Source: Candidatus Nomurabacteria bacterium
GTDB lineage: Bacteria; Patescibacteriota; Saccharimonadia; Saccharimonadales; JAGQNJ01
NCBI GenBank assembly: GCA_023898625.1
Contig: CP060231.1
Location: forward strand, 609,890 to 673,889
Direction of reading: 5' to 3'
DNA length: 64,000 nt
In this document: piece by piece, positions 1 to 56,087 of the stretch
Position numbering within the stretch: position 1 is the stretch's first letter
Layout: each line of letters starts with the position of its first letter
Notes under the pieces: generated by a model
Databases searched by the model: none
What the model was told of the DNA's origin: nothing
What the model saw: the letters and a program-made list of their open reading frames with translations, nothing else
Made by a program: the position numbers and the translations under genes

Positions 1-3000
1 ATTAATCATTGGGATGTTAGTCATGTAACAGATATGTACAATACTTTCTTAAACGCTAACAAATTTAATCAACCTTTAGGGAGCTGGGATGTCGGTAATG
101 TGACGAATATGGGCTATATGTTTGCAAATGCAAGTTCGTTCAATCAGCCTTTGGGCAACTGGAACGTCGGCAATGTAACAAACATGGAGCGTTTGTTACT
201 GAGCGCAACCTCGTTTAATCAGCCTCTAAGTAGTTGGAATACTAGTAATGTTACAAATATGACAAGGCTTTTTGCAAATGCAGGTTCGTTCAATCAGCCT
301 CTAAATAGTTGGAACGTTAATAATGTAACAGACATGAGCTATATGTTTACAAATACAGCGACCTATAATCAGCCTCTAAATAGTTGGAACGTTAGTAATG
401 TGACAAACATGACAAGTATGTTTTTTTTATCGGCAAGCTTCGATCATTCATTAGCCAACTGGAATGTTAGTAATGTCACCGATATGTCACAGATGTTTGC
501 CTCTGCGTTAGGTTTATCGGTAACAAATTATGATGCAACTTTAGCCTCTTGGAGCTCTCAAGCTCTACAAAATAATGTAACTTTTGATGCCGGCACCAGT
601 AAATATTGTAATTCTGAGGCTCAGCGTCAGAGTATCATCACTAATTTTTCATGGACAATTAATGATGCTGGCAAGGATTGCGGATCACCCCCACGTCCAT
701 TTATCATTCAGGTTAAGACCGATAATCCAGGCACTACTAGTAATAATCAATTCCTTATTCCAACCGATAGTAACTATATCTACAATTACAATGTTGACTG
801 CAATAACGATGGTACGCCTGAATATACTAACCAAACAGGTGATGTAACCTGTACTTATGGCTCAACTGGCCAATATGATGTTGCTATATCTGGAATATTC
901 CCTTATTGGAATGGAGGTATGGGGCTTGAACAATTAAAGATTATCGATGTTAAGCAATGGGGTGATATAGATTGGCAAGATATGGCATATATGTTTTATG
1001 AAGCTTCGAATATGACTATGTCGGCAACAGACGCCCCGGGCTTATCTAGCGTAACTGACATGAGTTGGATGTTTAATGGTGCGGCATCGTTCAATTCAAA
1101 TATTAATAGCTGGGATGTTAGTAATGTTGAAAATATGGCTGGATTATTTAGTGGTGCTACATCATTTAACCAACCGCTAAATAGTTGGAATGTGGGTAAC
1201 GTTTATGATCTGCACTCCATATTTCTTGATGCAATATCATTTAACCAGTCATTGGACAGCTGGAATGTAGGTAGTCTATTGGATGCACGATTTATGTTTT
1301 TTGGTGCCATATCCTTCAACCAGCCATTGAATAGCTGGGATGTTAGTAATGTTACAACTATGGAAAGTATGTTCCAGGATGCCATTGCTTTCAATCAGAC
1401 ATTAAATAGCTGGGATGTTAGTAGTGTAGTGAATATGAGTAGAATGTTTCAGCACGCCACTTCCTTTAATCAACCCCTGAATGGCTGGGATGTTAGTAAT
1501 ACCAACAATATGATGCTAATGTTTTTTGATGCGACATTATTTAATCAACCATTAAATAGCTGGGATGTAGGCAGTGTCACTAATCTTCAGGGCATGTTTG
1601 GCTATGCTACTTCCTTCAATCAACCACTTAATAATTGGAGTATAAGTAGTGGTGCAAATATAGATGCACTTTTCATAAATGCCACTTCATTCGACCAGTC
1701 TTTAGCTGATTGGGATGTGAGTGATACGTTAAGCCTGAAAGGCTTATTCGGCGATTTCATTGAAACAAGGAAGGCATTTTTTGAACAAATATATAGCCTA
1801 TCTTATGAACAGTGGGATCAGCCAACTAAAGATAATTTTTGGAATATGATGTCATCAATTTTTGGCTACGCCATTGATGAATCTTCCTATACCCCAGACC
1901 CCTCAGGTCTCTCTACCGCCAACTACGACGCCACCCTAATATCTTGGTCAGCACAGAACCTAGAGAGTAGTGTTGTCTTTGACGCTGGCACCAGTAAGTA
2001 CTGTACTAGCGAGGCTCAGCGTCAGAGTATCATCACTAACTTTTCATGGACAATTAACGATGGTGGAAAGTATTGTGGACCACCACAACGCCCATTCATC
2101 ATACGGGTTAAGACTGATAACCCCGGCTATACTAGCAACAATCAGTTTCTAATCTTAGCTGATGGTAATACACTTAACTACGATGTAGATTGTAACAATG
2201 ATGGCACGCCTGAATATACCAATCAGACAGATGATGTAACTTGCACATATGGTTCACCCGGTGAATATGATATTGCTATTACTGGGACTTTCCCTCATTG
2301 GTACGGCAATGTCGATAACAATGATCAAGCAAAGATTATTGATGTCAAGCAGTGGGGTGATATTGAATGGCTGGATATGAGTGACATGTTTAATAGCGCT
2401 ATTAATATTACTGTTTTTACCGCAACAGATATCCCTGATTTAAGTCAAGTTACGAGCATAAGAGGTATGTTCAGTAGAGCAACGGGATTCAACACCAACA
2501 TAAATAATTGGGATGTTAGTAATGTAACAAATATGGATGACACCTTCTCTCTAGCTACTAGCTTTAATCAGCCACTGAATAGCTGGGATGTCAGTAACGT
2601 AACTATCATGAAAGCTACATTTGCAGGTGCTTCTTCATTTAATCAACCACTTTATAGCTGGGATACCAGTAATGTTATGTATATGAATGTTATGTTTGCA
2701 AATACAGACTCCTTCAATCAGCCACTTGACAGCTGGGATGTAAGTAATGTAACCGATATGACAGCGATGTTTGCAAATACAGACTCCTTCAATCAGCCAC
2801 TTGACAGCTGGGATGTCAGTAACGTAACTGATATGTCAGCTATGTTCGCAAATGCAGTGGTTTTTGATCAGCCACTGAATAGTTGGGATGTAAGTAATGT
2901 TATGGATATGACGGGTATGTTTAGTAATACAGGTTTATTCAACCAGTCATTAGCAAACTGGAATGTTAGCAATGTTTCAGTAATGGACGGTATGTTTTCT

Positions 3001-6000
3001 AGTGCTACAGACTTTAATCAGCCACTGAATAGTTGGGATGTAAGTAACGTGGCTAGTATGTTTGGTATGTTTGGAGATTATGTTGCTTCAGCTCGGTCTG
3101 ACCATGAACAGGGCTATGGCTTACCTTATGATCAATGGGATCAACCAACCAAAGACGCTTTCTGGGGTCAGATGTCAATTATTCTTGGCTACCCCGTTGA
3201 CGAACAATCTTACGTACCCAACCCATCTGGTCTCTCCACCGCCAACTACGACGCCACTCTAATATCTTGGTCGGCACAGAACTTAGAGAGTAGTGTTGTC
3301 TTTGATGCTGGTACCAGCAAATACTGTAACTCAGAAACCCAAAGACAAAGTATTATAGATAACTATACCTGGACAATAAACGATGCAGGGAAGGATTGTT
3401 CTATCCAACCCCCTCAAAATCTAGTAGGCACTCCTCATACTAAATCAATAGAAGTAGACTGGGATGACGTAACAGGAGCAAATCACTACAAACTAGAGTA
3501 CAAGCTAACAAGTTCTTCTACCTGGACAGAATACACTAACAACACCATCTCTGGCTCATTTCTAGAAATAACTGGCCTAGAAGCATCAACCTCCTACGAC
3601 ATTAGAGTAAAAGCTGTAGACTCATCAAACGACGAAAGCGATTGGTCAGACACCCTAACAATATCTACCTTAGCTCAACAAACCTATCATATTACAGATT
3701 GTCAGGAGTTGCAGAGTTTGTATGTAAATCCCATTACCTATGTTACAGGAGATCCCTACGGAAGATACTTACTAGATAACGATATAGATTGTACAGAGAC
3801 ATCAAACTGGTACTGGGAGGGAATAGACCCAGAAGCAAATATTCCATCAGGCTTTTTGGCTATGGTATTTAGTGGTGATTTCGACGGACAAGGCCATACG
3901 ATAAATAACATATATCAAGATACTGAGTACTTGACGGTTGGAGGTATGTTTGCGCAAATAAATGGCGCATCAATCAGTAATGTCACCTTGAATAACTTCA
4001 ATAGGAAAATCGGAGCCAAAGAGGCTTTCACTATAACTCTACCCACAGGGGGTGTAGTGGTGACATATGCCCTATCGTCGACAATATCGAATGTAGAGGT
4101 CAAGAATTTGCAAGCCACAGGAGAATCAGTAGGCAAATTAGGAGGTATAGTTGGGACAGCGGATTCCTCGACACAAATAACAAAATCATCCGTTACAGGA
4201 TCGGTAAACTTGTCTGGATATACTCTAGATGGACGATTTGATCAGCCACTAGATATCACAAATGATAACAGCGGTAATGTATATATTTTGGATGTTGGAA
4301 ACAAGCGAGTTCAGAAATTTGACTCAAACGGTAATTACATTATGCAGTTTAAAGCTCAGGATAACTCAGCTACCTATACACCTAGTAGTATAGCTATAGA
4401 CAGCAGCGGATTTATCTATATAACAGATCAGACTAATAGATTCGTAAGAAAATATGATAATAATGGTATTTTTCAATCCCAATTCGGATCATCAGGATCC
4501 GGAGATGGGCAGTTCTATGAACTTAACGATATTGCAGTCGACTCCATGAATAATATTTTAGTTGCAGACAGAGTTAACAGTCGTGTTCAAAAGTTCGATA
4601 CGAATGGTAGTTATATTTCCCAATTCGGATCATCAGGATCCGGAGATGGGCAGTTCTATGATTTGTCGAAACTAGTCTTAGATAGCACCGGAAACATCTA
4701 TACGTTAGAATCTAATAATCATCGTGTTCAAAAATTCGATACGAATGGTAATTTTTTGCAGAAATTTAATACCGATACATTTGCAGACGAATCATTCAAT
4801 ACCCCAGTAAGTCTATCTATAGATAATCTAGGAGATATATACATTACTGATAGTGGTAACCTAAAGATACGCAAATTCACAAATTCTGGCACATACATTT
4901 CTGATATTGGAACAGAAACAGAAGTATTTGCACCATATGGAATTTTAGTTAATACATCTGGTGATATTGTTGTTTCTGATATAATGCGAAATTCCATAAC
5001 ACGCTACTCAAATACGGGAGTAAAGCAGAACTCATGGGGTAGGTATGGCTCAAACACAGGAGCTGATCTATTTGTTGGAGGTGTAGCGGGACTTTTAGTT
5101 AATAGCTCTATTAGAGAGTCGTTTACCAACATTAGTATTACTGTTGATATTAATAGTGGCATGAACTATGACGATGGATCTGCTGTTGCTCCATTAGTGG
5201 CTCTAGGTTACTACAGCAATATAAATGATAGTTATTCATTAGGGAGTATCGCTACAAACGGGGGTCCAGTAATTACTGCTGGAATCGCAGGTTGGATGTA
5301 CACGAATGTTAATATAAATAACTCATACAGTGCTACTGACATTATCGAGACAAATAATATTCTTCCTGAGTCGTTTGGCTCGCCATGGCCATCTGATTTT
5401 TCTGCAAGTAGTGCTTTAGTAGGTATGTATGTCATGCCAGACGTGGTTATTAATAATTCCTTTTTCGCTGGATCTTTGCAGTCTAACATACCAATTCGTA
5501 GCCTTGTTTCAATGGCAATGACTGGTAATCCTACTGGGCCGTTGCCTAATACGATTAATGTCTATTACGACCAAACTAAATCCGGAGTTAATAAATGTAT
5601 TGGACTGCCAATTGACATGAACACAGCTAGCTTTTTACCTACTATAGATTCCGACTGTCACCCCATCAACACCGATGGTTCTCAACCTAACTACTTCAAG
5701 AACAATTCTACCAATCCCCCATTGAATCAATGGAACTTCTCTACTATATGGAAAACTAACTGCACTAACTATCCAGACTTTGTAGGCTCAACCAACTGTA
5801 ATCCATCCAACCCTCCAGAAAACCCAGGTAACGGCAATCCTCCAACCACCCCTACAACTCCCACAACCCCAACCACCCCTACAACCCCAACCAATCCTCC
5901 AAAGACTCCTAGTACCACCAAACCACCTACTCCCTCAACTCCCACCACTCCCACAGAATCAGACACCCCTCCATCTTCATCCAACAATCAGTACTACTCC

Positions 6001-7791
6001 AACCCTCAGTCTACGGCACTACCAGCTCCCCTATCTAAAGTAGTCAAAGGCTCCTTCATGCAATCTCTAGTGAACTATACTGCTAACAATATACCTAAAC
6101 CCGTAGCTAAAGCCATTCCATACAGCCTACTCATACTTCTACTAGCTCTCTCAGCCCTCTATGGCTACTCTAGCTATCTAGAAAACAAAAGAAGACAAGC
6201 TCTCCAAGCTCTCATCACTCGCTTCAAATCTCTACTATCGGCTAGAGCTACCTTCCTACGTATTACCTCCCACTACATCAATACACCGATCACTAAGATC
6301 CAAGGAACCATAGAACTACTAGCTATGGGTACTACTTCAACCACAACTGCTAATACCACAACAGCAAGTACCAACACCACAAACAATAACTCAAGTACTA
6401 ACAATAACTCTACAGGCTCTAATACCAACCCTCCTACTAATACCAGCGCTACTCCTCCAAGTAACACTACTAGCTCTACCAGTAATCCAGGCACTACCTA
6501 CACCCCTAACTCTAGCTCCCAGACTAGTTCAGCTTCCGTAAACAGCTCTAGCAATCAGGCTAGTACCACCAGCTCCATCAGTTCTACTCCTAGCTCCCCT
6601 AATAGCATTAGTATACCTATTAATACTAACTCTAGCTCTCAGTCTGGTTCAGCTTCCGTGTTCACCTCAACCCTAGCCACTACAGCTACCACTCTAACTA
6701 TCCCAGAAGCCTCTATCGTAGCCTCCAAGTCAGCCATCAAGAGTCTCACTAACCATGCCAATGAACTACTAGATGAAGGACAATCCCTCACCGGAAGACA
6801 ACAAGCTAACATCAGAAACCTAGAACAAAGAAAAGGACTTAGCTTCCTAACCCATCCTTTCTTCTGGCTCCCAGTAGTAGTTATCTCTACCTTAGTAGTA
6901 CTACTCAACATCATCTTCATTCAAGCTGAACGCTATACCCCTACAGCTATTACTATTGCTTCTCAACTTATCCTAGGCTTCGTTGGTGTTATAGCTTTAG
7001 GTGTCAGCTACTACTTCTACCGTTCCTTCCAGTCCCAAAGACAAGCTCTACTAACCGAACAAGAAATAGAACAAGAGTTCAATGCTCGCCAAGCTAACTT
7101 CATAGCTGATGCCTACAACAAGCTCAACGATGACATCATAATCCTAGAAGGTGTCAGCCAAGACCTAGCTAAGTATCCTAAAGTCCGTAACTTCAACCAA
7201 GGCCTCAATGAACTAAAAGACATAGTCTCCCAACTAGAAAAACTCAGCAACCTATCTAAGCATGTCCCAGGACTGCAATACCACACCAACCTAAGCAGTA
7301 CTATATCTACTACCCTAACTAACCTCAGATCCCTAGCTGACCAACAGAACATCACTATAACTACCAACAACATCAAACCCAACCAAAACGTCAACATAGA
7401 AGCTAATGCCCTAACCCATCTACTGTCAGCTCCACTCAAGAACGCCATCTCAGCTAGTACTGCTGGCTCTAATATAGAACTATCCCAATCTATCCACAAA
7501 GCTAACAAATCTAGCCAGATAAATAAACCTAACACAGTAACCACTAACCCTAACAATACCAACCTACCTATCCAAATAACTATTACCGATCATGGCAAAG
7601 GCATACCCCCAGAACAACTAAACAATATCTTTACCCCATTCAACTCAGCCCATAGCCTAGAACACTTCACTGATACCGGACTAGGACTAGACCTCTACCT
7701 ATGCAAAGTAATTACCGAACAATACAACGCCAACCTAACCATCACCAGCCAACCAGGAGAAGGCACAACAGTGATAGTGGGGATGGGGTGA
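1..7791 (+). CDS. Giant membrane protein, 5'-truncated by the window edge: DUF285/BspA-like repeat ectodomain + FN3 + GLUG-like beta-helix with inserted NHL propeller + Pro/Thr linker + TM + histidine kinase (H-box, HATPase_c)
   Basis: Frame 1 is open from nt 1 (INHWDVSHVTDM precedes the first ATG at 34) to the stop at 7789-7791. Dozens of ~25-aa FNQPLxxW(D/N)VSNVTxMxxMF repeats. FN3-like segment ~3409-3675 (PPQNL..EVDWDDV..YKLEYK..YDIRVKAVD). GLUG-like text (FSGDFDGQGHTINNI, GGMFAQINGASISNVTL, VGGVAGLL). NHL blades ~4231-5045 (GNVYILDVGNKRVQKFDSNGNY). PT-rich 5815-5990. TM ~6115-6180. H-box FLRITSHYINTPITKIQG (His codon 6271-6273). TM pair ~6850-7020. N/G1/F/G2 boxes (LKNAISAS, DHGKGIP, IFTPFNSA, GLGLDL) ~7430-7700. 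Confidence 0.85.
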   Translation: MNHWDVSHVTDMYNTFLNANKFNQPLGSWDVGNVTNMGYMFANASSFNQPLGNWNVGNVTNMERLLLSATSFNQPLSSWNTSNVTNMTRLFANAGSFNQPLNSWNVNNVTDMSYMFTNTATYNQPLNSWNVSNVTNMTSMFFLSASFDHSLANWNVSNVTDMSQMFASALGLSVTNYDATLASWSSQALQNNVTFDAGTSKYCNSEAQRQSIITNFSWTINDAGKDCGSPPRPFIIQVKTDNPGTTSNNQFLIPTDSNYIYNYNVDCNNDGTPEYTNQTGDVTCTYGSTGQYDVAISGIFPYWNGGMGLEQLKIIDVKQWGDIDWQDMAYMFYEASNMTMSATDAPGLSSVTDMSWMFNGAASFNSNINSWDVSNVENMAGLFSGATSFNQPLNSWNVGNVYDLHSIFLDAISFNQSLDSWNVGSLLDARFMFFGAISFNQPLNSWDVSNVTTMESMFQDAIAFNQTLNSWDVSSVVNMSRMFQHATSFNQPLNGWDVSNTNNMMLMFFDATLFNQPLNSWDVGSVTNLQGMFGYATSFNQPLNNWSISSGANIDALFINATSFDQSLADWDVSDTLSLKGLFGDFIETRKAFFEQIYSLSYEQWDQPTKDNFWNMMSSIFGYAIDESSYTPDPSGLSTANYDATLISWSAQNLESSVVFDAGTSKYCTSEAQRQSIITNFSWTINDGGKYCGPPQRPFIIRVKTDNPGYTSNNQFLILADGNTLNYDVDCNNDGTPEYTNQTDDVTCTYGSPGEYDIAITGTFPHWYGNVDNNDQAKIIDVKQWGDIEWLDMSDMFNSAINITVFTATDIPDLSQVTSIRGMFSRATGFNTNINNWDVSNVTNMDDTFSLATSFNQPLNSWDVSNVTIMKATFAGASSFNQPLYSWDTSNVMYMNVMFANTDSFNQPLDSWDVSNVTDMTAMFANTDSFNQPLDSWDVSNVTDMSAMFANAVVFDQPLNSWDVSNVMDMTGMFSNTGLFNQSLANWNVSNVSVMDGMFSSATDFNQPLNSWDVSNVASMFGMFGDYVASARSDHEQGYGLPYDQWDQPTKDAFWGQMSIILGYPVDEQSYVPNPSGLSTANYDATLISWSAQNLESSVVFDAGTSKYCNSETQRQSIIDNYTWTINDAGKDCSIQPPQNLVGTPHTKSIEVDWDDVTGANHYKLEYKLTSSSTWTEYTNNTISGSFLEITGLEASTSYDIRVKAVDSSNDESDWSDTLTISTLAQQTYHITDCQELQSLYVNPITYVTGDPYGRYLLDNDIDCTETSNWYWEGIDPEANIPSGFLAMVFSGDFDGQGHTINNIYQDTEYLTVGGMFAQINGASISNVTLNNFNRKIGAKEAFTITLPTGGVVVTYALSSTISNVEVKNLQATGESVGKLGGIVGTADSSTQITKSSVTGSVNLSGYTLDGRFDQPLDITNDNSGNVYILDVGNKRVQKFDSNGNYIMQFKAQDNSATYTPSSIAIDSSGFIYITDQTNRFVRKYDNNGIFQSQFGSSGSGDGQFYELNDIAVDSMNNILVADRVNSRVQKFDTNGSYISQFGSSGSGDGQFYDLSKLVLDSTGNIYTLESNNHRVQKFDTNGNFLQKFNTDTFADESFNTPVSLSIDNLGDIYITDSGNLKIRKFTNSGTYISDIGTETEVFAPYGILVNTSGDIVVSDIMRNSITRYSNTGVKQNSWGRYGSNTGADLFVGGVAGLLVNSSIRESFTNISITVDINSGMNYDDGSAVAPLVALGYYSNINDSYSLGSIATNGGPVITAGIAGWMYTNVNINNSYSATDIIETNNILPESFGSPWPSDFSASSALVGMYVMPDVVINNSFFAGSLQSNIPIRSLVSMAMTGNPTGPLPNTINVYYDQTKSGVNKCIGLPIDMNTASFLPTIDSDCHPINTDGSQPNYFKNNSTNPPLNQWNFSTIWKTNCTNYPDFVGSTNCNPSNPPENPGNGNPPTTPTTPTTPTTPTTPTNPPKTPSTTKPPTPSTPTTPTESDTPPSSSNNQYYSNPQSTALPAPLSKVVKGSFMQSLVNYTANNIPKPVAKAIPYSLLILLLALSALYGYSSYLENKRRQALQALITRFKSLLSARATFLRITSHYINTPITKIQGTIELLAMGTTSTTTANTTTASTNTTNNNSSTNNNSTGSNTNPPTNTSATPPSNTTSSTSNPGTTYTPNSSSQTSSASVNSSSNQASTTSSISSTPSSPNSISIPINTNSSSQSGSASVFTSTLATTATTLTIPEASIVASKSAIKSLTNHANELLDEGQSLTGRQQANIRNLEQRKGLSFLTHPFFWLPVVVISTLVVLLNIIFIQAERYTPTAITIASQLILGFVGVIALGVSYYFYRSFQSQRQALLTEQEIEQEFNARQANFIADAYNKLNDDIIILEGVSQDLAKYPKVRNFNQGLNELKDIVSQLEKLSNLSKHVPGLQYHTNLSSTISTTLTNLRSLADQQNITITTNNIKPNQNVNIEANALTHLLSAPLKNAISASTAGSNIELSQSIHKANKSSQINKPNTVTTNPNNTNLPIQITITDHGKGIPPEQLNNIFTPFNSAHSLEHFTDTGLGLDLYLCKVITEQYNANLTITSQPGEGTTVIVGMG
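2692..2841 (+). repeat. Two adjacent near-identical 75-bp (25-aa) DUF285-type repeat units inside the giant ORF
   Basis: 2692-2766 and 2767-2841 both read atgtttgcaaatacagactccttcaatcagccacttgacagctgggatgt.agtaa.gtaac.gatatg, with only a few mismatches. Larger modules also recur: NYDATLxSWS..SKYC..QRQSII..W(T)INDxGK at 526-684, 1921-2080 and 3244-3400; RPFIIxVKTDNPG..QWGDI at ~690-975 and ~2086-2370. Confidence 0.9.
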
Positions 7792-7803
7792 GAAAAGAAA
7801 CAG

Positions 7804-8571
7804 ATGGAGTTTGTTGATACACATTGTCATGTGCATTTTCCGGATTATGGACTTGATGCTGATGAGGTTGTCACAACAGCAATTGATCAGGGTGTGACCA
7901 GAATGTTGGCCGTAGGTTGCACATTGCATGATAGTAAGCTGGGTGTAGAATTTGCTTCAAGGCATAAAAGTATATGGGCAAGTGTTGGTGTTCATCCGCA
8001 CGAGGCAAAATTTTATACCGAAAACCCAAAATCACTACAAGAACTAAGGAATTTATCAAGAGAGCAGAAGGTTGTGGCGATAGGTGAAATTGGTCTAGAC
8101 TACTATTATCAACACTCATCAAAGGAAGATCAAAATTCAATGTTGCGCTACCAGGTAGAGCTTGGGTTAGAGAAGAACTTACCCTTCATCTTTCATGTTC
8201 GTGAAGCATTTAGTGATTTTTTTGAGATAATTGATGAATATAAAGGGATAAGAGGAGTAATTCATAGTTTTACAGCAGATCCTGAGGTGTTAGAAGAATG
8301 TTTGTCTAGGGGGCTATATATCGGCCTTAACGGAATAATGACATTTACAAAAGATAATAAACAGCTAGAATCAGCAAAATTAGTACCAAAAGATAAATTA
8401 TTGCTTGAAACTGACTCTCCCTACTTGACCCCTGTTCCATTTCGTGGTACAATCTGTCAGCCTGTGCATGTTGTGAGTACGGCTCAGTTTTTGGCGAAAT
8501 TACGCCAAGAAGATCTAAAGAGTCTAGCAGATTACTCTACACACAACGCCATAGAGCTATTTAAGTTATGA
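7804..8571 (+). CDS. tatD: TatD-family metal-dependent hydrolase/DNase
   Basis: 255 aa. DTHCHVHF (HxH), GEIGLDYYY, IHSF, LETDSPYLTPVPFRG motifs typical of TatD/YcfH. Confidence 0.9.
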   Translation: MEFVDTHCHVHFPDYGLDADEVVTTAIDQGVTRMLAVGCTLHDSKLGVEFASRHKSIWASVGVHPHEAKFYTENPKSLQELRNLSREQKVVAIGEIGLDYYYQHSSKEDQNSMLRYQVELGLEKNLPFIFHVREAFSDFFEIIDEYKGIRGVIHSFTADPEVLEECLSRGLYIGLNGIMTFTKDNKQLESAKLVPKDKLLLETDSPYLTPVPFRGTICQPVHVVSTAQFLAKLRQEDLKSLADYSTHNAIELFKL

Positions 8572-27648: not shown

Positions 27649-29493
27649 ATGAAAAACCTTCTAACGAAACTATCTATATCAACAAACAAACTAAAAACTA
27701 TAAACTACCTAATACTATCCCTACTATTCACCATAACCACCCTAATACCATTAACTACCAGCACAGCCAACGCCACACCACTACCTACTGATGTGCCAGA
27801 ACATGTTTGGACTAAGGGTAATGGAGATGGAGTATTCAGAAGCCCTAGAGGCATCACCACCGACTCCGCTGGCAATGTCTATGTGGCCGATAAGGGCAAC
27901 AACCGTATTCAAAAGTTTGATAGCTCCGGTACCTTCCTGGCCAAGTGGGGCAGTTATGGTTCGGCTGATGGTGAGTTTGATGGCCCTTCTGGCATCACCA
28001 CCGACTCCTCCGGCAATATCTATGTAGCTGAAATGTATAACAACCGCATCCAAAAGTTCAATTCCTCCGGCACCTTCCTAGCCAAGTGGGGCGCCTCTGG
28101 CTCAGGCGATGGGGAATTTGATCGTCCTTACGATATAACAACTGACTCTTCTGGTAATGTCTATGTAGTCGAAATGTATAACCACCGCATCCAAAAGTTC
28201 GACTCTAATGGCACCTTTCTTGCCAAGTGGGGCAGTAATGGCTCAGCCGATGGTCAGTTTAGCTATCCTGACGGCATTACCACCGACTCCTCCGGTAATG
28301 TCTATGTAGCCGATGCAGGTAACAGCCGCATCCAAAAGTTTGATAGCTCCGGCACCTTCCTAGCCAAGTGGGGTAGTAGTGGCTCAGCCGATGGGGAGTT
28401 TAGCTATCCTTATGGCATCACCACCGACTCCTCTGGTAATGTCTATGTAGCAGATGCTGGCAACCACCGCATCCAAAAGTTCAACTCCTCCGGCACCTTC
28501 CTAACCAAGTGGGGTAGTAGTGGCTCAGCCGATGGGGAGTTTAGCTATCCTTATGGCATCACCACCGACTCCTCCGGCAATGTCTATGTAGCTGATTCTG
28601 GCAACAACCGTATCCAGAAGTTCGATGCTAACGGCACCTTCCTAACCAAGTGGGGCAGTAATGGTTCAGCTGACGGGGAGTTTATTATTCCATATGATAT
28701 AACCACCGACTCCTTTGGCAATGTCTATGTAGCTGATACTGGCAACAACCGCATCCAAAAGTTCGACTCTAATGGCACCTTCCTAGCCAAATGGGGCACC
28801 CTTGGCTCGGCTGATGGTGAGTTTATTATTATGTATGGCGCAGGGCTACACATAGATAATTTTGACAATTTATATGTCTCCGAGTTCCTCAACAGCCGCA
28901 TCCAAAAGTTTGCCTATCCTAGCGAAGAACCTGAAACCCCAGAAGAATCTTCCTCCGACTCCGACGGTATCCCCGACACCATCGAAAACTCTGCCCCCAA
29001 CTCTGGCGATGCTAACAATGATGGTATAGCCGATAGTACTCAAGCTAATGTAGCTAGCTATGTTAACCCAGTAACCAATAGCTATGTAGTACTCCAAACA
29101 TCCAGTGAATGTAGTATCACTACCACTACTACAACTAGTGAAGATAACCTAACTATAAAAGACTCTGGCTATAACTATCCAGTAGGACTAACTAACTTCA
29201 CTACTGACTGTAATACCCCGGGCTTTACTGCTACCATAAATCTCTACTACTACAACCTAGATAGTACTAACTATGTACTAAGAAAACATAACCCTAACAA
29301 TAACTCTTTCCTTACTATAGCTAACCCTACACTAACTAACCTAACTATAGACAATAAACCAGTAACCAAAGTAACCTACCAAGTTACTGACGGACAACAA
29401 CTAGACATAGACAACACCACTAACGGAACCATAGTAGACCCAGTAGGCCTAGCTACACTAGCTGTAGGAAGTCCTAATACGGGGTTGAGATAG
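27649..29493 (+). CDS. Secreted NHL-repeat (beta-propeller) protein with acidic DxDG linker and C-terminal beta-rich domain
   Basis: 614 aa. Signal/TM LILSLLFTITTLIPLTTSTANA. Eight copies of ..GITTDSSGNVYVAD.GNNRIQKFDSSGTFLAKWGS.GSADGEF... Then SDSDGIPDTIEN..GDANNDGIADSTQANV. Confidence 0.85.
   Translation: MKNLLTKLSISTNKLKTINYLILSLLFTITTLIPLTTSTANATPLPTDVPEHVWTKGNGDGVFRSPRGITTDSAGNVYVADKGNNRIQKFDSSGTFLAKWGSYGSADGEFDGPSGITTDSSGNIYVAEMYNNRIQKFNSSGTFLAKWGASGSGDGEFDRPYDITTDSSGNVYVVEMYNHRIQKFDSNGTFLAKWGSNGSADGQFSYPDGITTDSSGNVYVADAGNSRIQKFDSSGTFLAKWGSSGSADGEFSYPYGITTDSSGNVYVADAGNHRIQKFNSSGTFLTKWGSSGSADGEFSYPYGITTDSSGNVYVADSGNNRIQKFDANGTFLTKWGSNGSADGEFIIPYDITTDSFGNVYVADTGNNRIQKFDSNGTFLAKWGTLGSADGEFIIMYGAGLHIDNFDNLYVSEFLNSRIQKFAYPSEEPETPEESSSDSDGIPDTIENSAPNSGDANNDGIADSTQANVASYVNPVTNSYVVLQTSSECSITTTTTTSEDNLTIKDSGYNYPVGLTNFTTDCNTPGFTATINLYYYNLDSTNYVLRKHNPNNNSFLTIANPTLTNLTIDNKPVTKVTYQVTDGQQLDIDNTTNGTIVDPVGLATLAVGSPNTGLR
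27823..28920 (+). repeat. Tandem 141-bp (47-aa) NHL repeat array, about 8 copies, high nucleotide identity
   Basis: caaccg.at.caaaagtt recurs at 27900 and 28041, with period 141 across the array. Confidence 0.9.
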
Positions 29494-34055: not shown

Positions 34056-36722
34056 ATGCATTACTCCACACGTATCTCTCCCCATGCTAATATATACCTA
34101 ATGTCAGAAAATCATTTATCTCGCCAAGGTGCTCAATTCCTCCATCAGCAATACAGTACACTACATCAATCAGACCCAGTCAATCAAGAACAAATAAGAA
34201 GAGCTAGAAGACTAAGCCATGATCTAGAGGATTCCTTTCTACCAGAAGATATAACTGAGTCTGAAGCTGTAAGTACTATTCCAGCTCACGAACTAGATTC
34301 AGAAGTACACACCAAGCCTATAGATAAAATAGATGACTGGATGAAAGTACTAGAACGTACTCATCAAGGTCATCGTGATGACCCAAGAGTACTAGAACGT
34401 ATTAAGAATAGTTACCATAGACAATATGTTATCAAGCCAGAGCAAGTTCCAGAGTCTGCCTTTGCACTAGAAGCTCAAATAGCCAGGAATATGGGTTATG
34501 GTGATATACCAATAACCGATGAGTTCAGACAAGCTAAAACAAAAGAAATTATCTCTAACCAAGAAGAAAGCCTAGATCGTTGGGTAGACTATCTTTCCAG
34601 TCCTGATGCTGTCTACCCAATGTGGCTTAAGTACTGGGCATTTACTAGCATTACTAAAATGGGCAAACTAGAAAAGAACACAACAACTGATGAACATGGA
34701 GTAGAACACGAAACAACTCGCTTTGCTAGACGAACAGAAGATACTGTATCTCCATTCCCACCACTCAACCCCAGAGCTCTAGCTTTAACCCTTTCAGCTA
34801 TTGAAGCTAAGGCTAGCCAAAGAGGAATACCTAAGAAAGAAAGACAGCCAATCGACAATACTAGTACTAAGCTAAACGACAGTGACTTTGCTCAACTAGT
34901 ATCTTCTGAAAGCTTCTCTAAGTTGTATGCTCAGTTCTTATCTGAACTACCAGCCTATTCAACTGAAGGACTTAGAGAAACCAGAGGACAATGGGTTAAG
35001 TATGATCAAGGTAGTGATGCCCAACCCTTAGTAGATAGCCTAGAAGGTCACCCCCTAGAGTGGTGCACAGCAGGTATAGAAACTGCCAGGAATCAACTAT
35101 CTACAGGTGACTTCTATGTTTACTATTCTATTGACCAAGACGGTAACCCAACAATACCTAGAGTAGCTATTAGGATGCAAGATAGCTCTATAGCCGAAGT
35201 AAGAGGCATAGCCCCCGACCAAGAAATAGATCCATTCATTGCTGATGTGGTAAGCGAAAAGATGCAAGAATTCCCAGACGGTGAACAATACCAAAAGAAA
35301 GCTAGCGATATGAAGCGACTCACCGAAATCGATGAACGTAAGGCCGGTGGTAGTGAACTAACAACAGAGGACCTAAGATTCCTCTACGAAATAGACAATC
35401 CAATTAATGGCTTTGGCTATGAAAAAGACCCAAGAATCGAACAACTACTACAAGACAGAGACACTCGCGCTGATCTTTCAATGCTTCTTGACATACCACC
35501 ACAACAAATTAGCTTAACCCGGGAAGAAGCCCTCAGTGGAACACCAGAACAACCAATCGTTTACCATTATGGAGGCCTTGATCTCTATAGCCTGACCAGT
35601 GCCGAAGGACTAACCCTACCAAACAGTGTTGGTGGATACCTTGATCTCCACAGCCTGACCAGCGCCGAAGGACTAACTCTGCCAAACAGTGTTGGTGGAA
35701 GCCTTGATCTCTATAGCCTGACCAGCGCCGAAGGACTAACCCTACCAAACAGTGTTGGTGGAAACCTTGATCTCCACAGCCTGACCAGCGCCGAAGGACT
35801 AACTCTACCAAACAGTATTGGTGGAGGTCTTAATCTCTCTGGCCTGACCAGCGCCGAAGGACTAACCTTGCCAAATAGTATTGGTGGAGGTCTTAATCTC
35901 TCTGGCCTGACCAGCGCCGAAGGACTAACCCTGCCAAATAGTATTGGTGGAGGTCTTAATCTCTCTGGCCTGACCAGCGCCGAAGGACTAACCCTGCCAA
36001 ACAATATTGGTGGAGGTCTTAATCTCTCTGGCCTGACCAGCGCCGAAGGACTAACTCTGCCAAACAGTGTTGGTGGAAGCCTTGATCTCTATAGCCTGAC
36101 CAGCGCCGAAGGACTAACCCTACCAAACAGTATTGGCGGAAGCCTTAATCTCTCTAGCCTGACCAGCGCCGAAGGATTAACCTTGCCAAACAGTATTGGT
36201 GGAAGCCTTGATCTCTATAGCCTGACCAACGCCGAAGGACTAACCTTGCCAAGCAGTATTGGCGGAGGCCTTTACTTCCATAGGCTGACCAGCGCCGAAG
36301 GACTAACCTTGCCAAGCAGTATTGGTGGAAGCCTTAGTCTTTATAGCCTGACCACCGCTGAAGGATTAAACTTACCAAACAGTATTGGTGGAGACCTTAG
36401 TCTTTATAGCCTGACCACCGCTGAAGGATTAACCTTACCAAACAGTGTTGGTGGAAGCCTTGATCTCTCTGGCCTGACCAGCGCCGAAGGACTAACCCTA
36501 CCAAACAGTATTGGTGGAAGTCTTTATCTCACTAACCTGACCAGCGCCGAAGGACTAACCCTGCCAAGCAGTGTTGGTGGAGACCTTGATCTCTATAGAC
36601 TGACCAGAGCCGAAGGACTAACCCTACCAAACAATATTGGTGGATACCTATATTTGAAGAGTCTGACCTACACTGAAAATGAATCTCTCCGCCAAGCCAG
36701 ACCAGACCTAAGGATTATCTAG
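34056..36722 (+). CDS. Large repeat protein: ~500-aa unassigned N-terminal region + about 17 tandem 21-aa LRR-like repeats
   Basis: 888 aa (alternative start ATG 34101). C-terminal half is LxLxxLTSAEGLTLPNSIGGx reiterated. I saw no signal peptide or TM. Confidence 0.8.
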   Translation: MHYSTRISPHANIYLMSENHLSRQGAQFLHQQYSTLHQSDPVNQEQIRRARRLSHDLEDSFLPEDITESEAVSTIPAHELDSEVHTKPIDKIDDWMKVLERTHQGHRDDPRVLERIKNSYHRQYVIKPEQVPESAFALEAQIARNMGYGDIPITDEFRQAKTKEIISNQEESLDRWVDYLSSPDAVYPMWLKYWAFTSITKMGKLEKNTTTDEHGVEHETTRFARRTEDTVSPFPPLNPRALALTLSAIEAKASQRGIPKKERQPIDNTSTKLNDSDFAQLVSSESFSKLYAQFLSELPAYSTEGLRETRGQWVKYDQGSDAQPLVDSLEGHPLEWCTAGIETARNQLSTGDFYVYYSIDQDGNPTIPRVAIRMQDSSIAEVRGIAPDQEIDPFIADVVSEKMQEFPDGEQYQKKASDMKRLTEIDERKAGGSELTTEDLRFLYEIDNPINGFGYEKDPRIEQLLQDRDTRADLSMLLDIPPQQISLTREEALSGTPEQPIVYHYGGLDLYSLTSAEGLTLPNSVGGYLDLHSLTSAEGLTLPNSVGGSLDLYSLTSAEGLTLPNSVGGNLDLHSLTSAEGLTLPNSIGGGLNLSGLTSAEGLTLPNSIGGGLNLSGLTSAEGLTLPNSIGGGLNLSGLTSAEGLTLPNNIGGGLNLSGLTSAEGLTLPNSVGGSLDLYSLTSAEGLTLPNSIGGSLNLSSLTSAEGLTLPNSIGGSLDLYSLTNAEGLTLPSSIGGGLYFHRLTSAEGLTLPSSIGGSLSLYSLTTAEGLNLPNSIGGDLSLYSLTTAEGLTLPNSVGGSLDLSGLTSAEGLTLPNSIGGSLYLTNLTSAEGLTLPSSVGGDLDLYRLTRAEGLTLPNNIGGYLYLKSLTYTENESLRQARPDLRII
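35571..36670 (+). repeat. 63-bp tandem repeat array (about 17.5 copies), coding
   Basis: ttggtggagg recurs at 35818 and 35881 (period 63). Several central copies (35818-36006) are almost identical. Confidence 0.92.
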
Positions 36723-50039: not shown

Positions 50040-50126
50040 GTGCGAGTGGCGGAATCGGTAGACGCGCTAGCTTGAGGGGCTAGTGGGAGCAATCCTATGG
50101 AGGTTCAAGTCCTCTCTCGCACACCA
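50040..50126 (+). tRNA. tRNA-Leu (anticodon GAG), CCA encoded
   Basis: Acceptor GTGCGAG/CTCGCAC. Anticodon arm CTAGC-TTGAGGG-GCTAG. Long variable arm. T arm GGAGG-TTCAAGT-CCTCT. Discriminator A + CCA. Confidence 0.9.
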
Positions 50127-50138
50127 ATCAAAAGGTTT

Positions 50139-50846
50139 CTAGAATAATTGCTCAATATCTGTCTTTACTTTTTCTAATGTAGTTTTGTAGTTATACTCAT
50201 AGTTAGAGTATTTTGTTAATAATCTGCCGATGGCGAGAATGTCGGCTCCATGATCGATAGCCTCCTTTGGTGACATGGTTGTTGGGTGTTGATCAATGGG
50301 TTGGTTGTTGTATCTGATACCAGTGGCTATCACGGTAAAGTTGCCTATATTCTTGACTCGTTCTATCATTCCAACATTGCACATAATATCTGTTATTTGC
50401 TTGCGATGAGGAAGATATTCATTGGCCATAATAACCTCTTCTAGGAAGGGAACAATCAAATCATCATGATAATTTGGCATTGGTATAAATATACTCGAGT
50501 CATGATCCGTGGCATTAACCGCAGAAATTAAGGATTGATGACCAGAAAGGGCGGAAACGCTCAACTTTTTGACACCTCGACTAAATACGCTATTTGCAAC
50601 CTGAGGTATTTGATCAGAATCCAAGACATAATTTGTATCTAGCCAGGTTTCTATGTCGTGATCTCGTAGCATTCTATGAATTGACCAAGGTCTATCAAAT
50701 TGCATTAGTTCTAAGCCTAACTTGAAGGCGCGTGTTTCTTTGCCAATGTCGCTTGCAATTTTGCCCAGATTTTGGATGTCTGATTTTGCATCAATAACTA
50801 CTATAATTTTATTTGCTATAGGATCAAGAGCCTCAAAGTTCCTCAT
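50139..50846 (-). CDS. Orotidine-5'-phosphate decarboxylase-fold protein, divergent (catalytic Lys apparently not conserved)
   Basis: 235 aa. IIVVIDAKS...AFKLGLELM and C-terminal GADILAIGRLL resemble PyrF/KGPDC family. The DxKxxD region reads WLDTNYVLDSDQIP (no Lys). Confidence 0.5.
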   Translation of the reverse strand: MRNFEALDPIANKIIVVIDAKSDIQNLGKIASDIGKETRAFKLGLELMQFDRPWSIHRMLRDHDIETWLDTNYVLDSDQIPQVANSVFSRGVKKLSVSALSGHQSLISAVNATDHDSSIFIPMPNYHDDLIVPFLEEVIMANEYLPHRKQITDIMCNVGMIERVKNIGNFTVIATGIRYNNQPIDQHPTTMSPKEAIDHGADILAIGRLLTKYSNYEYNYKTTLEKVKTDIEQLF

Positions 50847-50956
50847 GTCTGATTTATATCAGACGTTATCTTGATTGTAAAAATATTGTGTTATATATCA
50901 CAGATAACTAGTTGTGCATGACAGAGCATTAAATACTACCAATATAATCATTTTCT

Positions 50957-50964
50957 GGTATAAT
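50957..50964 (+). promoter_or_regulatory. Extended -10 (TGgTATAAT) upstream of tRNA-Val
   Basis: tctggtataat lies with TATAAT at 50959-50964, 13 nt before the tRNA 5' end. The same tctggtataat precedes tRNA-Gly. Confidence 0.45.
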
Positions 50965-50977
50965 CGTTCGGAGATGT

Positions 50978-51054
50978 GGGCGCTTAGCTCAGCTGGCTAG
51001 AGCACTTCGTTTACACCGAAGGGGTCGGGGGTTCGAGTCCCTCAGCGCCCACCA
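50978..51054 (+). tRNA. tRNA-Val (anticodon TAC), CCA encoded
   Basis: Acceptor GGGCGCT/AGCGCCC. D arm GCTC-AGCTGGCTA-GAGC. Anticodon arm CTTCG-TTTACAC-CGAAG. T arm GGGGG-TTCGAGT-CCCTC. Confidence 0.92.
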
Positions 51055-51091
51055 CATTAAGCACCTTTCAGTGATGATTAAACTATCATGT

Positions 51092-51167
51092 GGCTCTTTA
51101 GCTCAGTTGGTAGAGCAGAGGCCTGAAGAGCCTTGTGTCCCCAGTTCGAGTCTGGGAGGAGCCACCA
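51092..51167 (+). tRNA. tRNA-Phe (anticodon GAA), CCA encoded
   Basis: Acceptor GGCTCTT/AGGAGCC (one G-U pair). D arm GCTC-AGTTGGTA-GAGC. Anticodon arm GAGGC-CTGAAGA-GCCTT. T arm CCCAG-TTCGAGT-CTGGG. Confidence 0.92.
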
Positions 51168-51451
51168 AAATCTATATGATTTTTTGGAGATACCCAGACG
51201 AGAACTGGGATCTGCGGAGCAGACAGTTCGGTCATGACGAACACGCGCAGATGCTTGCATCGAGCATGTGATGAAATGGACCGCAAGGTCGCCCTGGGAG
51301 GAGCCACCAAAATCTATATGATTTTTTGGAGATACCCAGACGAGAACTGGGATCTGCAGAGAAGACAGTTCGGTCATGACGAGCACGCGCAGATTCTTGC
51401 ATCGAGCATGTGAGGAAATGGACCGCAAGGTCGCCCTGGGAGGAGTCACCA
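51168..51451 (+). repeat. Two tandem 142-bp units directly 3' of tRNA-Phe, each ending with a copy of the last 16 nt of the tRNA (CTGGGAGGAGCCACCA)
   Basis: Unit A 51168-51309 and unit B 51310-51451 differ at 6 of 142 positions. A third start (aaatct) at 51452-51457 then diverges into the tRNA-Gly promoter. The units are visibly more GC-rich than other intergenic DNA and contain local hairpins (CCCAG-ACGAGAA-CTGGG; GTTCG-GTCATGA-CGAAC; GACC-GCAA-GGTC). Confidence 0.9.
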
Positions 51452-51456
51452 AATCT

Positions 51457-51464
51457 GGTATAAT
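51457..51464 (+). promoter_or_regulatory. Extended -10 (TGgTATAAT) upstream of tRNA-Gly
   Basis: tctggtataat with TATAAT at 51459-51464, 12 nt before the tRNA-Gly 5' end. Confidence 0.45.
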
Positions 51465-51476
51465 ATATGTCAATAT

Positions 51477-51552
51477 GCGGGTGTAGCTCAGTTGATAGAG
51501 CGCTTCCTTGCCAAGGAAGAGGCCACGAGTTTGAGTCTCGTCACCCGCACCA
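51477..51552 (+). tRNA. tRNA-Gly (anticodon GCC), CCA encoded
   Basis: Acceptor GCGGGTG/CACCCGC. D arm GCTC-AGTTGATA-GAGC. Anticodon arm CTTCC-TTGCCAA-GGAAG. T arm ACGAG-TTTGAGT-CTCGT. Confidence 0.92.
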
Positions 51553-51591
51553 ATCAGACTCAAATGATTTTCAAGCAGTATTGTTTCTAAC

Positions 51592-51617
51592 AAATGAGTC
51601 GTGCGAGGCTCATTTTT
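51592..51617 (+). terminator. Rho-independent-type terminator after the tRNA cluster
   Basis: AAATGAG (51592-51598) / 10-nt loop / CTCATTT (51609-15), running into a T tract. It overlaps the first ATG of the next ORF, arguing for a downstream start. Confidence 0.5.
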
Positions 51618-52205
51618 GTTAAGATATATATAATGAAGATGCTTATTATTGAGGGAATAGCGACAAGCGGCAAATCCAGTCTAATAAAGAAATTGACCGA
51701 GCTGCTAGGCGAGAAAAGGCTACTCATATTCGGTGAACCAGCTACCCATATTCCAATTATGGAAAAAACAGACGAGCTGCACGTTGAGTTTTTCAAATCG
51801 CTCATAGACGATGCTGTCAAAGCTGATGCTGACCTTGTGATATTTGATAGGCTACACTACACGCAGGCATATCGAGCAAAAGCAAGCTTAGTTGAATACG
51901 CTGAAATTGATGATTTACTGTCAAAACAAGATACGCTTGTGGCATATTTGCGGGTAGATGAGAGTGCAATTGCCGAACGGGTCAGACTTGCTACTGAACA
52001 TCGTGATAGGACGTGGGGCGATTATGTACTTACTAAGGGCAAGACTTTTGATGAAATTGCCGAGTATTATGTCGCTCAACAGAGTAGTCAGCTTCAACTA
52101 CTTAGTCAGACTAAGCTCGCTTATAAAGTATTCAACACTACTCAACACAACTACCAAACCATAGCTGAACAGATTATCAACGACTGGTACAAAAAGCCTG
52201 CCTGA
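51594..52205 (+). CDS. P-loop kinase-like protein (thymidylate/deoxynucleoside kinase-like fold; function uncertain)
   Basis: ORF from 51594, but the probable start is ATG 51633 or 51639 (MKMLIIEGIATSGKSS: Walker A close to the N-terminus, as in dNK/TMK-type kinases). Confidence 0.6.
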   Translation: MSRARLIFVKIYIMKMLIIEGIATSGKSSLIKKLTELLGEKRLLIFGEPATHIPIMEKTDELHVEFFKSLIDDAVKADADLVIFDRLHYTQAYRAKASLVEYAEIDDLLSKQDTLVAYLRVDESAIAERVRLATEHRDRTWGDYVLTKGKTFDEIAEYYVAQQSSQLQLLSQTKLAYKVFNTTQHNYQTIAEQIINDWYKKPA

Positions 52206-52532
52206 AAATGCTTGGCGAAACTGTTCTCATAAATTAGGTATATAGACGGCGGAGTGTAGAATGGCAGGATAAAGAGTGACCCCGCCCTGTACTTGGGCAT
52301 AATAATAGGCATAGCTGTTCAATGGTTTGAGACTCTTTAATGGTCATATGCTAAGTTGTCGTCTAATCGGGATTATTCGGCTCAGTGTTTGAGCTTATAG
52401 TCCTCTTGAGCAAATGTAGCTGACGTTTGAAGTGTGTCAACTATGTTGCACTAAATCAGAACAAAAAGATTTTGTAACAGTCTAGTTTGAACATTCAGAC
52501 TCATTTCGGGTCTTTTTTGTTATCATTAGATA

Positions 52533-53111
52533 ATGATGCAACTAAAACAAGTGATATATAAGAAACCGCCAAAAAACGGGAAGTTTTATATTGTTGCTAT
52601 TGATGGTCGTGGTGGTGCCAGTAAGACTACGCTAACCGAATATATAGAAACACTTCTGCCCGATTTTAGTGTATTGAATGGTGATGAGTACTTTGAGCCT
52701 GACGATAATACAATCGCATTCGGCTCATTTAATGATGAGCGTTTTGAGAAGGAAGTGTTATCACAATTGCGAGAAGAAAAATCTGAGTTTATTTATCATC
52801 CATATCGGTGGGGCGACAAAGAGCCAATGTCTGATAAAAACCTAAAGATAACAGCAGGAATTATTGTTGAAAGAAGTGGCAGTTTTGCCTTCAACCTAAA
52901 TTTCGATTTTAAGATTTGGGTTGAAACACCAGCTAAACTTGCACTACAGAGAGGCCAGGAGCGTGATGAGATGCCACTTGAACAAGGCTATCGTTCTTGG
53001 AAAGAAGTATGGCAGCCACAGGAAGACGCTCACTTCAATAAGGTCAAACCATTGGAAACCGCAGATATAGTGATTGATGGAACAAGATCATTCGAAGAGC
53101 AAGTCGCCTGA
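52533..53111 (+). CDS. P-loop NTPase, uridine-kinase/PRK-like family
   Basis: 192 aa. IVAIDGRGGASKTTLTEYI Walker A, GDEYF, IIVERSG, KIWVETP, ADIVIDG. ATG is 6 nt after TATCAT (52521-52526). Confidence 0.6.
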   Translation: MMQLKQVIYKKPPKNGKFYIVAIDGRGGASKTTLTEYIETLLPDFSVLNGDEYFEPDDNTIAFGSFNDERFEKEVLSQLREEKSEFIYHPYRWGDKEPMSDKNLKITAGIIVERSGSFAFNLNFDFKIWVETPAKLALQRGQERDEMPLEQGYRSWKEVWQPQEDAHFNKVKPLETADIVIDGTRSFEEQVA

Positions 53112-53359
53112 TAAATTAAACAAGTTAACAAGATTTTTGAGCTTTTGGTCGTTGACTGCCTTAATTGATGATGTTTGAAATGCATCAACTATGTTTCCAC
53201 AAAATAGAACGCTTAGAACAGTGGATAGAACAGCTTGTCGCCAAAACCGGTGTGAAGCTCATCTAATCCTCAAGGCGGTAACCGAATAGCAGTTTTCATT
53301 ACGATAGACGGGGTACTACTCCAGTATTTGGACTCTCTTTTTGGAGCCCAACGACATGC

Positions 53360-53388
53360 TTGCATGATACCCCCAGGGGGTATATCAT
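53360..53388 (+). promoter_or_regulatory. csoR promoter (TTGCAT-17-TATCAT) with an embedded 17-bp perfect palindrome, ATACCCCC-A-GGGGGTAT (53367-53383); CsoR-type operator
   Basis: The GC-rich palindrome fills the -35/-10 spacer. CsoR operators in Gram-positives are C/G-tract palindromes of this type. ATG 53395 lies 6 nt after the -10. Confidence 0.75.
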
Positions 53389-53394
53389 AGAGTT

Positions 53395-53679: not shown

Positions 53680-53684
53680 CTGTA

Positions 53685-56046: not shown

Positions 56047-56087
56047 CACATTAATAGACATACATACAAACAAGGAGAATAAAACAA

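Follow-up and report, generated by a model that had tools for sequence, protein, structure and literature searches.

The giant open reading frame (ORF) at the beginning of the window studied here, a 64,000-nucleotide stretch of contig CP060231.1 from a genome of the Saccharimonadales, ends in a histidine kinase module in which the phospho-acceptor histidine and the ATPase domain are separated by a membrane hairpin, and this raises the question of how such a split kinase could work. The ORF occupies frame 1 of the + strand and is open from base 1 to the stop codon at 7789-7791; the kinase-bearing protein is longer than 2596 residues, the left edge of the window cutting off its N-terminus along with the true start and any signal peptide. 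In the module, a first transmembrane helix (TM1) is followed by a dimerization and histidine phosphotransfer (DHp) hairpin carrying the histidine (DHp1), two further transmembrane helices (TM2 and TM3), a second DHp hairpin lacking the histidine (DHp2) and a HATPase_c domain (Table 1). This layout is common to 188 distinct relatives. The C-terminal ~560 residues are interpreted here, with middling confidence, as an active class I (HisKA-type) kinase built as an asymmetric pseudo-dimer within a single chain.

Table 1. Features of the giant ORF and of its C-terminal kinase module (positions in the window).
Feature	Position	Strand	Evidence or content
Extracytoplasmic part of giant ORF	1..5799	+	DUF285/BspA-like repeats, FN3-like domain, NHL repeats, pre-linker motif
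Pro/Thr-rich linker	5800..5982	+	Approximate joining point of differing ectodomains with the kinase module
TM1, outside-to-inside	6115..6180	+	Kyte-Doolittle 19-residue peak 2.03
DHp1 helix alpha-1	6181..6330	+	Contains the H-box (6253-6321) and the phospho-acceptor His
Ser/Thr/Asn low-complexity insert, DHp1 hairpin loop	6331..6705	+	125 residues, 72% Ser/Thr/Asn
DHp1 helix alpha-2, back towards the membrane	6706..6828	+	AlphaFold2; HisKA coverage in relatives
TM2, inside-to-outside	6856..6924	+	Kyte-Doolittle peak 2.61; conserved FWLP motif
Extracytoplasmic TM2-TM3 turn	6925..6945	+	Length fixed in the family, K/R-poor
TM3, outside-to-inside	6946..7014	+	Kyte-Doolittle peak 2.22
DHp2 helix alpha-1', HisKA-derived, without His	7015..7167	+	Asn 7117-7119 at the His position
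DHp2 helix alpha-2'	7186..7254	+	AlphaFold2; structure and profile matches
HATPase_c (catalytic ATP-binding) domain	7291..7788	+	Pfam 56-59 bits versus cutoff 26.4

The elements that give rise to the question had been recognized in an initial annotation of the sequence and were recovered nearly unchanged: TM1, a good H-box with its His codon, a Ser/Thr/Asn-rich stretch (125 residues against the estimated 130 or so), two more transmembrane helices at about 6850-7020, a His-less second DHp-like segment (its start three bases off) and the HATPase_c domain behind it. The H-box, FLRITSHYINTPITKIQGTIELL, has its His encoded by CAC at 6271-6273; Tyr comes next (6274-6276), and Thr-Pro occupies 6283-6288. 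The second DHp-like stretch, QANFIADAYNKLNDDIIILEG, spans 7090-7152 and carries Asn in place of the His. All boxes of the ATPase domain are intact: N-box Asn (7441-7443), G1 (7588-7602), F (7636-7641) and G2 (7678-7695). The His-bearing DHp is thus not fused directly to the ATPase, as two transmembrane helices intervene. The Pfam HisKA match in the window protein (20.4 bits, E 5.4e-4; profile positions 2-30 of 66) does not extend beyond the H-box. Since the helix at 6706-6828 is its alpha-2, the first unit is nevertheless a whole HisKA hairpin and not an H-box alone, with the low-complexity stretch inserted in its loop. This insert is specific to the clade of the window protein and is disordered in the AlphaFold2 model (module residues 103-212).

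Several comparisons point to a HisKA origin of both hairpins. Profiles of DHp1 and DHp2 aligned by hhalign are in register over 67 columns, with the His opposite the Asn (probability 84%, E 7.6e-6). The Pfam HisKA model, run on both segments, recognized DHp1 and never DHp2: in 9 of 10 members with a short loop it extends over both DHp1 helices (profile positions 1-62 of 66), at scores of 13-27 bits, of which one only reaches the gathering score. The profile of DHp2 plus ATPase matches the whole DHp and catalytic (CA) region of solved kinases, including SrrB (E 3.7e-35), HK853 (E 1.8e-29), VicK, CpxA and BceS; in these alignments the His-less position of DHp2 faces their His, with 'nefikeasktL' opposite 'KDFIANVSHEL'. 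AlphaFold2 models of the module match ZraS, CpxA, HK853, DivL and RetS over 230-260 columns and BceS over ~335 columns, the transmembrane hairpin included. Both hairpins are modelled with pLDDT of 85-95, and TM1 with alpha-1 and TM3 with alpha-1' each form one uninterrupted helix, of approximately equal cytoplasmic length.

The separation of phospho-acceptor and catalytic domain by a membrane hairpin, described in the initial annotation as an unusual geometry, proved to be a conserved design. Because it recurs in 188 distinct relatives with an invariant first His, the arrangement is evidently not a product of chance. When the full module served as query in a word-index protein search, low-complexity and generic kinase candidates overwhelmed the results. 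Relatives found by protein search are 44-65% identical over the module, apart from one at 24% and two near-identical fragments (98-99%), and all those covering the region have the same order of parts. A profile free of the insert added ~27 members at scores of at least 308 bits, with canonical kinases scoring 165 bits at most. Ten loci came from a scan of species-representative genomes, nine in metagenome-assembled genomes (MAGs) of Candidatus Saccharibacteria and one in an unclassified 'bacterium' MAG, and the stop-to-stop ORFs read from loci displayed the same architecture in 12 of 12 cases. An exhaustive HMMER search yielded 622 cluster representatives (50% identity) at E<=1e-30; nearly all of the best 150 of these 622 clusters have two matched segments, of which the main one extends from the alpha-2/TM-hairpin region up to the ATPase. 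Proteins of 1400-3100 residues with the module at the C terminus, fused in frame, are numerous among the HMMER relatives.

The relatives named by taxon all belong to Candidatus Saccharibacteria or Patescibacteria, the record sources being Saccharibacteria and, once, a Patescibacteria group bacterium. In public records these proteins are called 'hypothetical protein', 'ATP-binding protein' or 'fibronectin type III domain-containing protein'; the first two names arise because domain models miss the split phospho-acceptor. None of three members tested against NCBIfam scored above a cutoff, the best match being phoR_proteo with 76.7 bits against a cutoff of 334 and the other matches also falling far under theirs, and full-text literature searches returned no description of this architecture. 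Synteny as a proof of orthology is partial only, since gene order is the same in locus L006, rearranged in L002 and absent from the other loci. An outlier, P0097 (416 residues, 157 bits), lacks TM1 and the standard H-box and keeps TM2-TM3-DHp2-CA; the 'AVHEYVRT' in its N-terminal cytoplasmic stretch, in which Glu follows the His, could represent an H-box that has moved or degenerated.

For conservation counts, the 188 distinct members were aligned to the family profile, and denominators refer to the sequences covering a column. All 175 members that cover the column have the DHp1 His, with Thr at +4 in 98% and Pro at +5 in 99%; the N-box Asn is found in 188 of 188, and the G1 and G2 glycines are conserved at 99.5-100%. 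The DHp1 His is therefore as conserved as the ATP-binding residues, which disfavours the degenerate signalling mode that the initial annotation had offered as one option. The second hairpin contains no conserved His. Its His-equivalent column is hypervariable and among the most variable of the protein (A26, E24, T20, G19 and N18, also S and K; His in 3 of 187). Helix alpha-1 of DHp1 averages 2.26 bits per column, with conservation on every face, whereas alpha-1' of DHp2 averages 1.37 bits per column, mainly in a hydrophobic seam with heptad-like spacing of 3-4 residues (F228, I229, A232, L236, L240 and L243). On account of these profiles, DHp1 looks like a functional surface for phospho-acceptance, ATPase docking and receiver docking, and DHp2 looks like a scaffold.

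All three hydrophobic segments recur throughout the family. As initially annotated, they have the character of membrane helices, TM2 and TM3 strongly so, and hydrophobic segments score 2.2-3.1 on the Kyte-Doolittle scale. Their cytoplasmic flanks are rich in Lys and Arg (4.1 per 15 residues after TM1 and 4.2 after TM3), compared with 0.7 per 8 residues in the TM2-TM3 turn, and complete relatives begin with an N-terminal signal peptide or signal anchor. From these flanks and N-termini, the chain is predicted to run from an outside ectodomain inwards through TM1, form DHp1 in the cytoplasm, pass out through TM2 and in again through TM3, and end with DHp2 and the ATPase in the cytoplasm. Spacing is almost invariant: the length from the end of TM1 to the His is identical in 172 of 172 members, that from the end of TM3 to the His-equivalent position in 184 of 186, and that of the TM2-TM3 turn in 183 of 185 (13 columns). 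The sole variable spacer is the DHp1 loop, of 12-137 residues. The DHp1 His lies ~31-32 residues below TM1 and its DHp2 equivalent ~33-36 below TM3, so that both are found at a similar depth. The short fixed turn, in addition, makes DHp1 alpha-2 and DHp2 alpha-1' of the same chain leave the membrane side by side. Because these helices emerge adjacent to each other, an intramolecular four-helix bundle would be sterically natural.

A canonical kinase is a homodimer in which each subunit comprises a TM helix, a DHp hairpin and an ATPase. In the proposed pseudo-dimer, unit 1 would consist of TM1 and DHp1, with the His kept and no ATPase, and unit 2 of TM3, DHp2 and the ATPase, with the ATPase kept and the His lost. 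TM2 would be a return strand that lets unit 2 enter the cytoplasm from the outside, like unit 1. The four cytoplasmic helices would pack together, most simply in one intramolecular four-helix bundle, and the ATPase attached to DHp2 would phosphorylate the DHp1 His, giving the geometry of 'trans' autophosphorylation inside one chain. The signal would come from the giant adhesin-like ectodomain via TM1, which runs unbroken into the His-bearing helix, and the phosphoryl group would pass to a receiver protein encoded elsewhere in the genome. Of this model, the domain order, the topology signals, the HisKA homology of both hairpins and the conservation pattern are observed, and the packing, the kinase activity, the input and the output are inferred. 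The trans-phosphorylation suggested in the initial annotation would then be right in spirit, with the ATPase of one hairpin acting on the His of the other; phosphorylation within one chain, as in a covalent pseudo-dimer, is at least as plausible as phosphorylation between subunits.

Several observations weigh against this model, beginning with those on packing. The pTM values of the AlphaFold2 models are only moderate, 0.62 for the window module (mean pLDDT 72.9) and 0.66 for P0092, a relative of 497 residues (mean pLDDT 79.9). Mean-field direct-coupling analysis of 178 aligned members (effective sequence number 168) revealed enrichment for ATPase-ATPase pairs only; the coupled column pairs 84-109 and 81-116 of the profile agree with DHp1 being an antiparallel hairpin, and DHp1-DHp2 pairs were at chance level, with the top pairs at inconsistent depths, at the low power that this effective number allows. 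A conventional homodimer or higher oligomer is a serious rival, although we consider it rather unlikely. In such an assembly DHp2 would be a His-less dimerization scaffold like the P3 domain of CheA, DHp1 would form its own bundle or dock on the partner, and phosphorylation would take place between chains, which corresponds to the trans-phosphorylation within a dimer put forward in the initial annotation. The hydrophobic seam kept by DHp2 is what would be expected of a dimerizing hairpin, each hairpin is HisKA-like by itself, and the computed data do not separate contacts within a chain from those between chains; to our knowledge, nearly all characterized HisKA kinases are homodimers. However, a tethered His domain needs a flexible linker only, as in CheA, whereas here the fixed TM hairpin and helix lengths recreate the TM-to-alpha-1 continuity of a second protomer. 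The complementary loss, with the His in unit 1 only and the ATPase in unit 2 only, is the usual signature of a fused pseudo-dimer, and the short TM2-TM3 turn already sets the two hairpins of one chain next to each other.

The single-chain kinase is also challenged by the chemistry of its H-box. In HisKA kinases the acid at His+1 is the general base for autophosphorylation, and canonical kinases from the same searches have Glu or Asp there in 80 of 83 cases. Of 175 family members, 167 have Tyr at this position and none has Asp or Glu, and no conserved acid that could replace it was found in DHp2 at matching depth. Because of the Tyr and the lack of a substitute acid in DHp2, the chemistry may differ or the activity be low: another base might be employed, the kinase reaction might be slow, or phosphotransfer or phosphatase activity might be favoured. 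Carried further, this reasoning leads to a protein whose DHp1 His is a phosphotransfer or phosphatase site (HPt-like, that is, like a histidine phosphotransfer domain, or phosphatase-biased) served by another kinase, its own ATPase binding nucleotide for regulation only. Such a role would agree with an H-box in which the acid has given way to a conserved Tyr but the +4 Thr, part of the phosphatase/transfer motif, persists, and Saccharibacteria do encode canonical PAS-HisKA kinases as well, the orthologue of whose paired receiver adjoins a family member in locus L012. We find it improbable, given that the N, G1, F and G2 motifs are as conserved as in active kinases and that invariant spacing keeps the His level with the ATPase hung on DHp2.

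The output of the proposed kinase meets objections of its own. No receiver domain was detected in the 64-kb window by tblastn with CheY, Spo0F, PhoB, NarL and a Saccharibacteria receiver. In L012 a stand-alone receiver of 169 residues (2306-2815, - strand; REC domain with a Pro-rich tail and no output domain) neighbours the split kinase in divergent orientation; this is the only locus with a receiver next to a family member. Its orthologue in L005, 59% identical, is paired with a canonical PAS-HisKA-HATPase kinase, ~4 kb from the split kinase (L005 411-1457 and 1498-3252, both - strand, for the neighbouring receiver and kinase), which complicates the assignment of this receiver to the split kinase. 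Judging from these two neighbourhoods, the receiver may be a shared output of both kinases.

Finally, the HisKA match of the window protein, at 20.4 bits, stays below the gathering score of 26.9. This would suit a degenerate pseudokinase or an annotation or assembly artefact, in which a decayed kinase tail sits on an adhesin or the hydrophobic segments lie outside the membrane. An abrupt change of codon usage within the ORF would agree with it too, as would the close genome L006, in which the kinase gene has been reduced to its last 63 codons (3498-3699) while the downstream order from TatD to AlaRS is unchanged. Decay or artefact is nonetheless very unlikely, and the conservation data largely refute it: the layout, the invariant His and the invariant ATP-binding residues are common to 188 distinct members whose assemblies are independent, many giant proteins carry the module as an in-frame fusion, and the hydrophobic segments have positive-inside flanks in addition to their high Kyte-Doolittle values.

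The single-chain pseudo-dimer may be compared with known systems. Canonical transmembrane HisKA kinases (HK853, EnvZ, WalK/VicK, SrrB and CpxA) share with it the fold and sequence family of DHp and HATPase_c, with alignment over the full length of DHp2 plus CA, an H-box of the SH..TP type in DHp1 and intact N, G1, F and G2 boxes. The family differs in that the hairpin with the His and the hairpin with the ATPase are distinct and a TM hairpin lies between them, that the ATPase-proximal hairpin has no His, that Tyr replaces Glu/Asp at His+1, and that neither HAMP nor PAS domains occur between membrane and DHp. Intramembrane-sensing kinases of the BceS/LiaS type, which have two TM helices with a very short external loop and no ectodomain, offer a structural likeness: the TM2-turn-TM3-DHp-CA part superposes on BceS (8g3a_D) over ~335 columns. 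BceS, however, bears a His itself and depends on an ABC transporter as partner for its input, whereas the corresponding unit here lacks the His; the family adds a preceding TM1-DHp unit and a large ectodomain, and has three TM helices.

The logic of the module is shared with CheA, where a His-less DHp-like scaffold likewise stands by the ATPase and the phospho-acceptor His is on a separate helical module of the same chain. CheA is a soluble protein with a P1 HPt domain, a P2 domain, a P3 dimerization domain, a P4 ATPase and a P5 domain, and its His is located on an HPt four-helix bundle that is unrelated to HisKA and connected by flexible linkers. The His module here is, by contrast, a genuine HisKA hairpin with a membrane anchor at each end, and Pfam detected no Hpt, H-kinase_dim or CheW-like domain, which argues against assignment to the CheA type. 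DivL, with Tyr in place of the His, and RetS, with its DHp heterodimers, illustrate that an ATPase-adjacent DHp can lose the His and yet keep a structural or signalling role. They have no second, His-bearing DHp in the chain, whereas here the partner hairpin is present in cis and the ATPase motifs are fully conserved. A precedent for working without homodimerization is EL346, of the HWE/HisKA_2 family with a DHp-like domain, which is reportedly a monomeric histidine kinase; it is, however, a soluble LOV kinase of a different DHp family with a single hairpin, and has neither tandem DHp nor membrane hairpin. The parts of the module (HisKA, HATPase_c and TM helices) are thus all known, while the order of His-bearing DHp, membrane hairpin and His-less DHp with CA, together with an H-box having Tyr for the acid, was not found described.

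The kinase module is joined to an ectodomain of adhesin-like character. Pfam recognized eight stretches of DUF285 (BspA-like) and five NHL repeats in the giant ORF; the NHL beta-propeller repeats lie at ~4363-4984, an FN3-like domain at ~3409-3681 is a weak match to the cytokine-receptor D2 family, under its cutoff, and a conserved pre-linker motif occupies 5692-5760. A start at 34 had been listed for the ORF, but the frame is already open at base 1, within a DUF285 repeat (window 1-33). A close relative of 2291 residues (P0131) has the same domains behind an N-terminal signal anchor. A separate NHL-repeat beta-propeller protein of 614 residues, a domain type akin to the NHL part of the ectodomain, is encoded at 27649-29493 (+ strand) of the window.

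Among members, ectodomain types vary widely, from DUF285/NHL/FN3 giants to beta-helix-like repeats and a fourfold Cys-rich repeat. The ectodomains appear to have been exchanged or lost near the Pro/Thr linker (window 5692-5982) while the kinase module was kept. P0001, for instance, is 98% identical to the window protein in the module and has an unrelated N-terminal part, and in L001 (315-806) just the last ~150 residues of the ectodomain are left, upstream of a stand-alone module. The short members of ~640-680 residues (L002, L008, L010 and L012) carry a small ectodomain in their N-terminal ~200 residues, behind a signal peptide. It comprises about four Cys-rich repeats of the form D.C.NI.G.Q...P.GM..D..G.C.TP, which matched no significant Pfam family. 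As to separate expression of the module from the window gene, the Met at 6058 corresponds in alignment to the first residue of the stand-alone homologue P0003, though L003 does not conserve it. Promoter-like sites in 5300-8000 are no more frequent than in shuffled controls, and the idea of an internal promoter or start was rejected.

The codon-usage change within the ORF was traced by base composition. Third codon positions of the kinase module (6049-7788) contain 5% G and 37% C, with a GC skew of -0.42, those of the ectodomain of the same ORF 15% G and 21% C, and those of most neighbouring genes checked 17-24% G and 11-19% C. The shift begins ~200-350 bases upstream of the Pro/Thr linker, near 5450-5600, and ends at the stop codon. 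The G-poor trend is present also in the close relatives L001 and L003 and not in distant members. Antisense ORFs of 93 and 149 codons within the module (6639-6920 and 7113-7562, - strand) are probably by-products of the skewed base composition. A bias like that of the module occurs in an ORF of 888 residues at 34056-36722 (+ strand; 9% G and 26% C in third positions) with no Pfam match. The window also contains seven tRNA genes over 10 kb (50040-60052): Leu-GAG, Val-TAC, Phe-GAA, Gly-GCC, Cys-GCA, Leu-TAA and Arg-TCT.

It is still debated how a kinase dimer turns a small movement of TM helices into an asymmetric active state, and why phosphorylation proceeds in cis in some kinases and in trans in others. 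If the single-chain pseudo-dimer is real, linked halves with complementary losses would fix this asymmetry genetically, and each helix could be mutated independently, which is impossible in a homodimer. We further propose, tentatively, that one chain represents the whole signalling dimer, with two TM-DHp units in a single four-helix bundle, one His and one ATPase, so that a monomer with inherent asymmetry could signal, a giant and rapidly exchanged adhesin-like ectodomain could pull on the helix of one 'protomer', and the protein could serve these obligate epibionts as a host-contact sensor. As Saccharibacteria are epibionts, such a role in sensing host contact would be reasonable. As one of few signalling systems in the reduced genomes of Saccharibacteria, and one fused to huge, swappable surface domains, the family is a candidate for sensing attachment to the host bacterium.

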